NCBI GenBank assembly: GCA_045606505.1
Contig: JAZUSC010000050.1
Span: 35,320 to 99,319 of the forward strand
Origin: Oscillospiraceae bacterium
GTDB lineage: Bacteria; Bacillota; Clostridia; Oscillospirales; Ruminococcaceae
Direction of reading: 5' to 3'
Length of the DNA: 64,000 nucleotides
This document shows, piece by piece, positions 1 to 64,000 of this stretch. Within the stretch, counting starts at the first letter, position 1. Each line of letters begins with the position of its first letter. Under the pieces are notes generated by a model. It was not told where the DNA came from, ran no database searches, and saw nothing but the letters and a program-made list of their open reading frames with translations. Position numbers and translations under genes: made by a program.

Positions 1-50
1 CAAAACAAAACCCCACAGCTTATGCTGTGGGGCAAATGATATTCACATCA

Positions 51-962
51 TTACTTTCTGCACACGATAAACTCGATCCTGCCGAAAGAGAACTGCAATC
101 CAACGGAAAGACCGTTTGTAAGACCGATAGCAGCATCAACACGAGCCTCCTGCGGAGTGAGGTCAAGCTCAATATTGCGTGAGTTTGACATATTTACTGC
201 AAACAGACCGTTTTGGAGATTAAGGAACTCGCCGACACAAGCCTCAACGAACTCGTCAACCTGTTCAAACAGACCGAATTCTTCAAGATCACCGTCCTCC
301 TCATCGCTGGAATCAACAGCATAACGGGAAGCAAGCATTGCAAAAGCCGAAGCGTCGCCGCCGATAGCTGTGTATGCTCCCATTTTACCTGTAAGATCCT
401 GTGAGCAAAGGTGTTCGCACTTCAATACGGAGTTCTTTGTGCAGCCTGCAAGTACGAAATCGTCACCGATAAAGCGGATAGCGTTTCTTGTAAGCAGCAT
501 TATGTACTCGATATAGAAATCCTTGTCCTCGTCATTTTCAAGATCAAAGATCGAGATGAGGTCTTCTGCAAATGCACCGTCGCCATTCTCGTCACCTGCA
601 AAGGAGGCACTCTTCTTATAAGCGATAAGTGTATCCTCAAACTGCTGATTTGTGATGTATCCGAGATCAATAAGGGCCTGTCCCAGAACAATGTTTGCTG
701 TCTTCTGTCTTGAAAGCAGCTCTACGACCTGCTCCTGTGTGAGGAAGCCCATATCGATAGCGATATCACCGATACGCTTGTCTACGTGCTTTTGCTCTGC
801 GTGGACAGCCTCGACCTGAGCGGCATTCATATATCCTGCGTCAATAGCAAGTGCACCAAGCTTTGCACTGGTATTGGACTTAACTTCAAGTGCCTTTCCG
901 AGCTGCTCGCTGGTAATGACATTATTATTTAAAAGATAGTGTCCGAAAAGTTGTGTAAACAT
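51..962 (-). CDS. CheX/CheC-family phosphatase with N-terminal tandem MshEN-like repeats
   Basis: Four 24-aa repeats with 5-aa linkers (e.g. KLGALAIDAGYMNAAQVEAVHAEQ, RIGDIAIDMGFLTQEQVVELLSRQ); C-terminal E-x2-N-x21-P motif (GEFLNLQNG...LDLTP); directly downstream of a CheY-like gene. Confidence 0.75.
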   Translation of the reverse strand: MFTQLFGHYLLNNNVITSEQLGKALEVKSNTSAKLGALAIDAGYMNAAQVEAVHAEQKHVDKRIGDIAIDMGFLTQEQVVELLSRQKTANIVLGQALIDLGYITNQQFEDTLIAYKKSASFAGDENGDGAFAEDLISIFDLENDEDKDFYIEYIMLLTRNAIRFIGDDFVLAGCTKNSVLKCEHLCSQDLTGKMGAYTAIGGDASAFAMLASRYAVDSSDEEDGDLEEFGLFEQVDEFVEACVGEFLNLQNGLFAVNMSNSRNIELDLTPQEARVDAAIGLTNGLSVGLQFSFGRIEFIVCRK

Positions 963-981
963 TTAGTGTATATTCCCTTTC

Positions 982-1359
982 TTATTTTTCAGTAAGCTTA
1001 GAAAGCACCTTATTTACGTCATCATCACGTACGGGCTTCTGGAGGAACTCATACGCTCCTGCCTTGATAGCACTTACAAGGTGGCTCTGTGTGCCGATAG
1101 TGGACGCCATTACGACCTTGGCATCGTTATCGAATGCCTTGATCTCCACAAGTGCGTCAAGACCTGTCTTAACGGGCATAACGATATCCATAAATACAAC
1201 ATCGGGCTTGTTCTCTTTATAAAGTTCAACAGCCTGTACACCGTCCTTAGCCTCGATAATAGTGGTGATACCTGCCTTTTTAAGAACATCACTCAGTTTT
1301 CTTCTGACGAGAATAGAATCGTCACAGATCAAGACTTTAAGTTCTGAAATATTCATCAT
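982..1359 (-). CDS. Single-domain CheY-like response regulator
   Basis: ICDD acidic pocket, VFMDIVMP phospho-Asp, FLQKP; no output domain. Confidence 0.9.
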   Translation of the reverse strand: MMNISELKVLICDDSILVRRKLSDVLKKAGITTIIEAKDGVQAVELYKENKPDVVFMDIVMPVKTGLDALVEIKAFDNDAKVVMASTIGTQSHLVSAIKAGAYEFLQKPVRDDDVNKVLSKLTEK

Positions 1360-62882: not shown

Positions 62883-64000
62883 TTATACTACTACCTGATT
62901 TCTGCCTGAGGTCTTACCTTTATAAAGAAGTTCGTCTGCACGGTTTATGACAACTTCACTGTTCTCTCCGTTTTTCGCTGTGGAGATACCAAAGGTCATT
63001 GTAACATCAATATCCTCTCCGTCAAAACAGAAGTCCGTTTCACGTATCTCCTGCAAGAGCCTGTCCGCAATATCCTTTGCACCCTCTGTATCGTATTTCG
63101 GGATTATCATAAGGAATTCCTCACCGCCCCAGCGTGATGCGAAGCCGCCATTCTGAACCGAATAATTATTGAGGATAGCCGAAACATTTTTCAGCACATA
63201 GTCGCCCGCTGCGTGTCCGTAGGTATCGTTTATCTTCTTGAAAAAGTCGATATCTCCCATAATAACGGAATATGTAACCCGCTCTTCTATAAGGCGATCT
63301 ATCTTATTCCTGCAACCACGACGGTTAAAAAGCATAGTAAGCGGGTCACGTTCCACCATATCACGCAGATTATTCCGCACCTTAACAGCGTGTGACGAAA
63401 GCTCACCTATCTCGTCTGAACGCTTTATTGTTTTATCCGAAAGCCTTACAGAGAAATCACCGTCAGCAAGTTTGGCAAGAAAATGCTTGATATCTGTGAT
63501 ATCCGCAATTACGCTCCTTGTACTGAAAAAGCAGAATGCCAAAGCTATGATCAATGTCACTGCGGCAAGAACGATAAACCTAACCACTGCATCAACAGCG
63601 GTCGCCTCTGCACTTTCTATCGGCTTTCCCGCAAATATCATTCCCTGTACTTCTCCGCTCTGTGAAGAAATAGGAATATAATAACCCATATAGTAACGAT
63701 CGTTTACAAGAACTCTGGGATAAAGGTACTCACTACCGCCCTTTATGACCATTTCCGTTACCTCGTCAGCCGCCTTTGTGCCTACGGCAAGGCTTCCGTC
63801 AACATTCTTAACGCTTGTGAAAACACGGATATCGTTATAAAAAAGGGTGAAGTCCACGTCCTCCTCACAGGATACAACACCTGTAAGAGTGTTAAAATCA
63901 TCAGAACTTATCTCTGTATCACCTACAAGACAGACTTCCCCGTCATAACTTAGATCGCCCTCAAAATGAGAATTATAGATATTTCCAAAGGTACGGGCGG
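62883..64000 (-). CDS. Diguanylate cyclase with Cache-like, TM and HAMP input (5' end lies beyond the window)
   Basis: DPLTMLFNRR, DIDFFKKINDTYGH..GD, RWGGEEF; the frame stays open from 63857 to the window edge. Confidence 0.9.
   Translation of the reverse strand, partial: ARTFGNIYNSHFEGDLSYDGEVCLVGDTEISSDDFNTLTGVVSCEEDVDFTLFYNDIRVFTSVKNVDGSLAVGTKAADEVTEMVIKGGSEYLYPRVLVNDRYYMGYYIPISSQSGEVQGMIFAGKPIESAEATAVDAVVRFIVLAAVTLIIALAFCFFSTRSVIADITDIKHFLAKLADGDFSVRLSDKTIKRSDEIGELSSHAVKVRNNLRDMVERDPLTMLFNRRGCRNKIDRLIEERVTYSVIMGDIDFFKKINDTYGHAAGDYVLKNVSAILNNYSVQNGGFASRWGGEEFLMIIPKYDTEGAKDIADRLLQEIRETDFCFDGEDIDVTMTFGISTAKNGENSEVVINRADELLYKGKTSGRNQVVV

Follow-up and report, generated by a model that had tools for sequence, protein, structure and literature searches.

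Cyclic di-GMP (c-di-GMP) is the main bacterial switch between motile and attached life, while phosphorylated CheY (CheY-P) is the currency of chemotaxis. The known links between the two run mostly through separate PilZ or CheY-like proteins. Could the second messenger also act within a single protein on the lifetime of CheY-P? This question is raised by a locus at one end of a stretch of 64,000 nucleotides from the genome of an Oscillospiraceae bacterium (GenBank assembly GCA_045606505.1, contig JAZUSC010000050.1, hereafter C50). We refer to the whole of this stretch, C50:35320-99319, as the window. Its minus strand has an open reading frame (ORF) for a CheY-type single-domain receiver of 125 amino acids (982..1359), followed downstream by an ORF for a protein of 303 amino acids (51..962) in which an array of four MshEN-type motifs precedes a domain that we assign to the CheX type. 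Our preferred reading, to which we give a probability of about 0.62, is that this MshEN-CheX fusion is a c-di-GMP-gated CheY-P phosphatase dedicated to the CheY encoded beside it.

We start with the sensor. The array covers residues 5-115 of the fusion protein (618..950, minus strand) and consists of four 24-residue motifs and three 5-residue linkers: R1 (residues 5-28, LFGHYLLNNNVITSEQLGKALEVK) is followed by the linker SNTSA, R2 (residues 34-57, KLGALAIDAGYMNAAQVEAVHAEQ) by KHVDK, R3 (residues 63-86, RIGDIAIDMGFLTQEQVVELLSRQ) by KTANI, and R4 (residues 92-115, VLGQALIDLGYITNQQFEDTLIAY) closes the series. It corresponds to two tandem MshEN_N modules, a predicted c-di-GMP sensor. The NCBIfam model NF053729 ('cyclic di-GMP-binding domain-containing protein, MshE-related'), which spans 53 positions, i.e., two motifs and the spacer between them, matched the fusion protein in three stretches with an E-value of 4.5e-29 and a score of 100 bits, for a cut-off of 38. 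When the genome search was resolved by register, R1+R2 scored 46.7 bits and R2+R3 46.0 bits. Among PDB sequences, phmmer identified PilF of T. thermophilus (6f8l, E 7.8e-7) and MshE of V. cholerae (5htl, E 2.4e-6), with R2+R3 aligned to motifs 1 and 2 of MshE in the match to 5htl. A profile search also matched the c-di-GMP-bound structures of MshE and PilF.

The predicted structure points in the same direction. An AlphaFold2 model of the fusion protein, built on 42 homologues, reached a mean predicted local distance difference test (pLDDT) of 87.4 and a predicted template modelling score (pTM) of 0.80. It has eight helices in residues 3-118, folded as a bundle of helical hairpins. Using Foldseek, we found that the modelled array matches MshE in complex with c-di-GMP (5htl) locally, with a root-mean-square deviation of 0.7-1.2 Å over 51-53 residues, 35-36% identity and a probability of 1.0. 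This identity fits the pair R2+R3, because by count 19 of its 53 residues are identical to the corresponding piece of 5htl, against 15 for R1+R2 and 16 for R3+R4. A previous reading of the locus, made from the DNA letters and their translations (the sequence-only reading), had described the four 24-residue blocks, named their three linkers exactly as they stand, and assigned them to the MshEN type. All of this was borne out: besides the profile and phmmer matches, the structure prediction that it had proposed gave a fold related to MshEN, where an unrelated fold would have told against the assignment. Two Pfam families, FumaraseC_C (20 bits, cut-off 32.5) and DUF4388 (17 bits, cut-off 25), also matched the array; we discarded them as partial, sub-threshold likenesses of helical hairpins.

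Are the four motifs equivalent? We compared them by reading with the motif of Wang et al., R-L-G..hh..G hh....L...L..Q, and with its relaxed form, [RKPN]hGxxhhxx[GAS]hhxxxxhxxxhxx[QNKRYWST]. R3 matches the motif throughout, and R2 does so save for His54 at position 21. R4 has a Val at position 1, which is outside even the relaxed motif, and R1 departs from the relaxed motif twice, with Leu at position 1 and Asn at position 10. To assess how far this pattern extends, we looked at the family as a whole. An exhaustive profile search among 1.84 billion representatives returned 293 clusters (50% identity) at E <= 1e-30, and nearly all the family matches listed are 285-305 amino acids long and matched at full length. 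Our conservation set comprises 136 full-length representatives that are 27-47% identical to the window protein. The linkers after R1, R2, and R3 keep their five residues in 135, 136, and 134 of them. Position 1 is K/R in R2 in 129/136 and R/K in R3 in 111/136, the terminal position 24 is Q in 133/136 (R2) and 130/136 (R3), and the G at position 3 is kept in both motifs. As for the outer motifs, position 1 of R1 is F/Y/L in 124/136, where the six commonest residues listed include no basic one, and position 24 of R4 is Y/F in all 136. Each of the four repeats retains the hydrophobic positions 2, 6, 7, 17, and 21, except that R2 mostly has His at position 21 (H54 in the window protein). The sequence-only reading was thus right that only repeats 2 and 3 have a basic first residue and a terminal Q, and this turns out to be a trait of the family. 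Since the combination of degenerate R1/R4 and canonical R2/R3 is family-wide, it is a conserved design and does not reflect the decay of this one gene.

What this means for the ligand depends on which residues matter most. According to Wang et al. (2016, PMC5013675), binding depends most on the hydrophobic residues of the motif, each mutation of which causes a loss of more than 10-fold, while less than 5-fold is lost when Arg9, Asp12, or Gln32 is changed. The same authors paired the motifs as R1+R2 and R3+R4. Since hydrophobic residues dominate and changes of Arg or Gln cost little, the array may have either one ligand site, made by R2+R3, or two weaker ones, made by R1+R2 and R3+R4.

The array is connected to the C-terminal domain by a linker (residues 116-146; 525..617, minus strand), with one helix at residues 127-138 in the AlphaFold secondary structure and a pLDDT that dips to 63 in the block 121-130. 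The C-terminal domain itself (residues 147-303; 54..524, minus strand) was assigned to the CheX type by Foldseek and by its motif. Crystal structures of CheX or CheC-like proteins take all of the first 13 places among the PDB matches, including 3hm4, 3iic, 6vpw, 3h4y, 3h2d, 1squ, 1xko, and 3hzh, with E-values from 2.9e-8 to 1.5e-5 and a target template modelling (TM) score mostly of 0.70-0.75. Structures of FliY, CheC, and FliM rank below those of CheX. The domain has the motif E245-x2-N248-x21-P270, with E245 and N248 on the helix 237-262. This is its single ExxN helix: the first helix (residues 147-165, DFYIEYIMLLTRNAIRFIG) has no such motif, which makes the domain CheX-like, unlike CheC and FliY. 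A profile made from the domain only aligns DEFVEACVGEFLNLQNG...LDLTPQ with DELALSAIGELGNMTAG...VDITPP of T. maritima CheX. The same alignment puts GEFLNLQNG on GELGNMTAG, and hence E245 and N248 on the ExxN motif of T. maritima CheX, with the proline lined up as well. In the conservation set of 136 proteins, E or D occupies the place of E245 in 131, and N248, G252, and P270 are kept in 130, 131, and 108. Both the E-x2-N-x21-P motif and the CheX/CheC assignment had been put forward from the sequence, and both agree with these results. The C-terminal domain is, as modelled, a CheX fold of the CheC/CheX/FliY phosphatase family. We set aside matches of the domain profile to bromovirus-type coat proteins (E 0.15-0.25), since nothing but the CheX/CheC/FliY/FliM family emerged from the fold search.

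Two further features of this domain lie outside the classical motif. Directly before the catalytic helix there is an acidic insert, SDEEDGDLEEFGLFEQVD (residues 219-236; 255..308, minus strand), delimited by low pLDDT and by the alignment of homologues. It is partly hydrophobic and, in the model, disordered, with a pLDDT below 50 at residues 220-230, and it occurs only in the closer relatives (301-305 amino acids), homologues of 288-291 amino acids having a gap of about 15 residues there. It may bear a loose likeness to the acidic CheY-tethering peptides of CheZ and FliM. In addition, R163 (window 471-473, minus strand) and Q188 (396-398, minus strand) are kept in 132/136 representatives. They may belong to a contact surface peculiar to this family, for either the sensor array or CheY.

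The substrate proposed for the domain is encoded next to it. The CheY protein matches PF00072 with an E-value of 2.2e-25 over residues 9-118 of 125, and its best NCBIfam match, at E 6.4e-30, is to a CheY model whose equivalog cut-off it does not reach. By reading, it has the acidic pair D13/D14, the phospho-acceptor D58, the hydroxyl residue S86 (with T87 next to it), the aromatic switch F105, and K108. Its gene is separated from that of the fusion by 19 bp (963..981, minus strand), as had been noted before, though without the strand; read from the sequence, this spacer contains a purine-rich, Shine-Dalgarno-like AAAGGGAA ahead of the ATG of the fusion gene. Directly 3' of the fusion stop codon we found an intrinsic terminator (10..33, minus strand), with a stem of 10 bp including 7 G-C pairs, a loop of 4 nt, and then TTTGTTTTG. 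On the other side, 5' of cheY, there is a gap of 247 bp and then a divergent feoA-feoB pair. Given this terminator on one side, and the gap and divergent pair on the other, CheY and the MshEN-CheX fusion form a genuine two-gene operon. A consensus scan of the minus strand revealed no convincing promoter 5' of cheY.

To see whether the pairing is peculiar to this genome, we collected 67 related loci from genome collections. They come mostly from metagenome-assembled genomes (MAGs) of gut and rumen Oscillospiraceae and Ruminiclostridium, with others from Peptostreptococcaceae, Desulforudis, and Synergistaceae. The family is common in gut and rumen Clostridia. In nearly all the loci having upstream sequence, a CheY homologue lies directly 5' of the fusion gene; L058 and L060 have no CheY beside the module. 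These CheY proteins are 45-86% identical to that of the window and are better conserved than the fusion protein. In one locus (L067, Synergistaceae MAG JAITPZ010000028.1, 2461-3783, plus strand), the array, the CheX domain, and the receiver are in one ORF of 440 amino acids, with Response_reg at residues 316-426 (E 3.5e-27), on a contig of just 4.9 kb where an assembly error is possible. The pairing with CheY pointed out by the sequence-only reading is therefore conserved in about 60 loci, and in one lineage CheY is fused into the same protein. Outside the pair, the loci of two related Bacillota MAGs share another layout. In L059 (6637-7719, minus strand), a 360-amino-acid HD_5 (HD-GYP-type) protein is encoded two genes downstream of the module, in convergent orientation; in L070 (6702-7784, minus strand) the layout is the same, the HD_5 ORF being deduced from it, as the scan was made on L059 only. 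This neighbour could be a c-di-GMP phosphodiesterase. We did not see this HD_5 gene in the window.

For such a pair to work, the host would need a kinase and a source of ligand. The genome search identified one CheA on contig C26 plus several genes with CheW domains, flagellin genes on C26 and C57, and FliM on C57. All matches to CheW, CheA, FliM, and flagellin are on contigs C26, C38, C42, and C57, i.e., outside the contig of the window, in line with the earlier remark that the window has no cheA, cheW, or flagellar genes. There are 21 GGDEF matches over the cut-off in the host genome. One of them is inside the window, where a GGDEF-domain protein of the diguanylate cyclase type is encoded at 62883-63857 on the minus strand. 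With about 21 GGDEF proteins c-di-GMP should be available, so that ligand, kinase, and motor are all present in this host. The flagellar cluster on C57 has a classical CheC and a FliY, and beside FliY the host's only other close CheY, which is 44% identical to the paired one. The paired CheY and CheX are hence additional to the standard set of the host.

These results establish what the two domains are, the conservation of their catalytic and ligand-motif residues, the operon, its CheY pairing and fusion, and, from the survey given below, the confinement of the module to genomes with CheA. Binding of c-di-GMP and the number of its sites, catalysis, the direction in which it would be regulated, and the effect on the cell are inferred. 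In the scheme that we favor, the single CheA of the host would phosphorylate the paired CheY, and the CheX domain would speed the hydrolysis of CheY-P via E245 and N248, as in the solved CheX proteins. The c-di-GMP made by the approximately 21 GGDEF proteins would bind the helical array, and this binding, relayed by the linker helix, would change the reach of the CheX domain to CheY-P or its action on it. The level of c-di-GMP would thereby set the lifetime of CheY-P. In this flagellate host, the pair could provide a second output, or it could draw off phosphate to an extent tuned by c-di-GMP, competing with the motor CheY for the one CheA available.

Several observations weigh against this reading. 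The first ones concern the array: neither R1 nor R4 starts with a basic residue or ends in Gln, a His occupies the hydrophobic position 21 of R2, and XpsE, a homologue of MshE, has lost c-di-GMP binding (Wang et al. 2016, PMC5013675), hence similarity to the motif is no guarantee of binding. One might thus propose that the array no longer binds c-di-GMP but acts as a scaffold for dimerisation or docking, and that the protein is a constitutive CheX dedicated to the paired CheY. This would account for the mismatches of R1 and R4 to the relaxed motif at position 1, and of R1 also at position 10, as well as for H54 in place of a Leu that contacts the ligand, and XpsE shows that the MshEN fold can indeed lose binding. 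Yet the residues of R2 and R3 that contact the ligand (K/R, G, Q, and the hydrophobic ones) are kept among proteins with 27-47% identity, whereas a pure scaffold would be under less pressure. The linkers are invariant at exactly five residues, save in the few representatives counted above, and the cut-off of NF053729 is exceeded by a wide margin. We therefore regard a non-binding scaffold as unlikely.

Other observations against the gated phosphatase concern the CheX domain. The sequence match of the domain profile to solved CheX proteins is weak (E 0.14), and the fusion protein has no match to Pfam CheX (PF13690, gathering score 27 bits) at E <= 1. Of the two profile searches that the sequence-only reading had proposed, the one for MshEN thus gave a clear match and the one for CheX none. 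The same Pfam model matches 31 of the 42 homologues at E <= 1 (best 3.2e-6), and several homologues are named CheX by NCBI and JGI. The absence of a match in the window protein hence points to a divergent subfamily, whose membership rests on fold and motif. Moreover, the residue four before E245 is an Ala, where the classical motif has D/S; in the conservation set it is A in 59/136 and D in 58/136. Such a domain might be non-catalytic and, depending on c-di-GMP, bind CheY or CheY-P or keep them sequestered, like a FliM-like or CheC-like adaptor. The lack of a Pfam CheX match and the Ala at position -4 would fit this idea, as would the middle domain of FliM, which has the same fold without activity and whose structures occur lower in the Foldseek list. 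Against it stand the conservation of E245, N248, and G252 given above, the alignment of the first two with ExxN in T. maritima CheX, and the higher rank of CheX structures over those of CheC, FliY, and FliM. Because the ExxN residues are conserved, a non-catalytic CheY binder seems quite improbable to us. Two last points against our reading come from elsewhere. With CheC and FliY already in the flagellar cluster, swimming has no obvious need of a third phosphatase, and no biochemical study of an MshEN-CheX fusion was found in the literature searched.

If not the flagellum, what else could the gated phosphatase and its CheY control? To study this we analyzed 201 genomes of the family of the host. 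The module is present in 30 of them, FliM in 84, and the CheA dimerisation domain in 85. Among the 30 genomes with the module, 29 have CheA and 24 have FliM, while FliM is found in 60 of the 171 genomes without it. Two other species of the genus of the host are without the module, hence its distribution is patchy. When only genomes with CheA are considered, the module is in 6 of the 7 that are FliM-negative (G032, G037, G081, G152, G162, and G183), compared with 23 of the 78 that are FliM-positive. In five of these six (all but G037), which are near-complete (95-99%), we did not find flagellin or FlhA. The five keep CheA, CheW, and adjacent PilB- and PilT-like ATPases, and the paired CheY is the sole close one in each, matching at E 1e-39 to 1e-41 when the second-ranked protein reaches 1e-12. 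In G032, CheA (with a P2 domain), CheW, CheR, CheB, and another CheW make up the Che cluster, in this order and without a CheY. The presence of the module in CheA-positive genomes without FliM, with the paired CheY as the sole close one, indicates that its output need not be the flagellum, and suggests that a Che pathway working on something other than flagella can have the pair as its output branch. These non-flagellate genomes represent five genera, and relatives are not independent, so we treat the distribution as a lead and not as a statistic.

These observations bear on a further alternative, in which the biochemistry is that of our preferred reading and the difference lies in the output. 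The pair would be the response-regulator branch of a non-flagellar chemosensory pathway, with type IV pili or adhesion as the likeliest target, and in flagellate hosts it would act as a second output or a phosphate sink. Besides the FliM-negative genomes, it is favored by the host itself, where the flagellar cluster has a separate CheY and where we found a PilB-like ATPase carrying its own MshEN motif. On the other hand, the module is still enriched in flagellates, as seen from the FliM counts in holders and non-holders; none of the loci examined links a pilus gene to the module; the non-flagellate genomes come from only the five genera mentioned, with relatives that are not independent; and ATPases of PF00437 are nearly universal, so that their presence proves little. 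We consider this alternative tentative. The same caution applies to its more specific form: possibly, in the non-flagellate gut and rumen Clostridia, the pair is the sole response-regulator/phosphatase output of a complete CheA-CheW-CheR-CheB pathway that is independent of flagella (e.g., acting on a type IV pilus or on adhesion), with c-di-GMP setting the lifetime of CheY-P at the phosphatase, while flagellate hosts use the pair as a second output or a c-di-GMP-tuned phosphate sink. The sequence-only reading had been cautious over the output and had suggested a search for flagellar and pilus genes. This search detected flagellin, FliM, and a PilB-like ATPase in the host, and the caution is justified: flagella and one CheA are encoded elsewhere in the genome, and yet non-flagellate relatives keep the module.

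The sequence-only reading had also treated the combination of domains as unusual, and in this respect it has to be corrected. The architecture was already catalogued in 2016, and the window protein is one more member. Supplementary Table 4 of Wang et al. (2016, Nat Commun 7:12481, PMC5013675) lists '(MshEN_N)2 - CheX', with Geobacter lovleyi Glov_2742 (ACD96455), as a predicted c-di-GMP receptor of Deltaproteobacteria and Firmicutes, a distribution that includes the Clostridia genome of the window; homologues also bear the name CheX at NCBI. When compared with the sensor sequence given in Supplementary Fig. 3c of that work, residues 1-116 of the window protein align without gaps to Glov_2742 (31% identity, 63% positives, E 5e-25). 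Both proteins have four motifs with 5-residue linkers from residue 5, and then CheX. They share the R1 start F/L-F-G, the K-L-G, His at position 21, and Q of R2, the basic first residue and Q of R3, and the aromatic last residue of R4. The identity of about 31% is for the sensor region, as the comparison is limited to residues 1-116. In the window protein and its nearest relatives, unlike the Glov_2742 entry, the catalytic helix is preceded by an additional acidic stretch of about 15 residues.

Each half of the fusion also has solved relatives. The CheX proteins of T. maritima (1xko, 1squ) and Borrelia burgdorferi (3hzh, with CheY3-BeF3) are alike in predicted fold (target TM 0.73-0.75) and share with the window protein one ExxN active-site helix, a later conserved proline, and CheY as a partner, although sequence identity is just 14-17%. 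Classical CheX stands alone, at about 155 amino acids, and has no sensor domain, whereas the window protein has an N-terminal extension of 146 residues, a motif spacing of x21, and Ala instead of D/S at position -4. On the sensor side, the N-terminal domain of MshE (5htl) and the GSPII domains of T. thermophilus PilF (6f8l, 8pfa) share the 24-residue motif, the 5-residue spacer, and the helical hairpins. R2+R3 are 36% identical to residues 9-61 of MshE, on which they superpose at about 1 Å in the predicted model. However, the modules of MshE and PilF have two motifs each and sit on a secretion or pilus ATPase, while the window protein has four motifs, without a longer spacer, on a phosphatase-type domain, and its outer motifs depart from the consensus at the places of Arg and Gln. 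A functional parallel is PlzC-CheX of V. cholerae (Park et al. 2026, PNAS, PMC12799141), where motility behaviour is governed by a single pathway comprising a c-di-GMP effector and a CheX-type phosphatase for CheY. There, PlzC is a separate PilZ protein that acts in trans, whereas in the window a sensor-type module is fused to CheX, and the control of CheX by PlzC is reported to be distinct from the c-di-GMP-dependent role of PlzC in biofilm formation.

The other genes around the operon have no evident part in this system. Downstream of it there are genes for a zinc-ribbon protein, a ParA-like ATPase, and a 2-oxoacid:ferredoxin oxidoreductase. The first two lie left of the window (C50:34059-35252, minus strand) and encode a 180-amino-acid protein with an N-terminal zinc ribbon and a ParA/MinD-like P-loop protein of 215 amino acids. 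Their stop and start are 3 bp apart, and they are not kept beside the module elsewhere. Across the 67 loci, we found no functionally linked neighbour kept besides cheY, with feoAB present in only a few close relatives. As its neighbours are not conserved, the operon stands alone.

To what was catalogued before, our analysis adds the family-wide pattern of R1 to R4, the adjacency of CheY or its fusion into the same protein, the co-occurrence with CheA, and the presence of the module in FliM-negative genomes. This survey suggests that the module can serve chemosensory pathways, with outputs that are poorly known, in bacteria without flagella. If our reading is true, a phosphatase with a fused c-di-GMP receptor would be the most direct link between c-di-GMP and chemotaxis so far, because the second messenger itself would set the lifetime of the signal.

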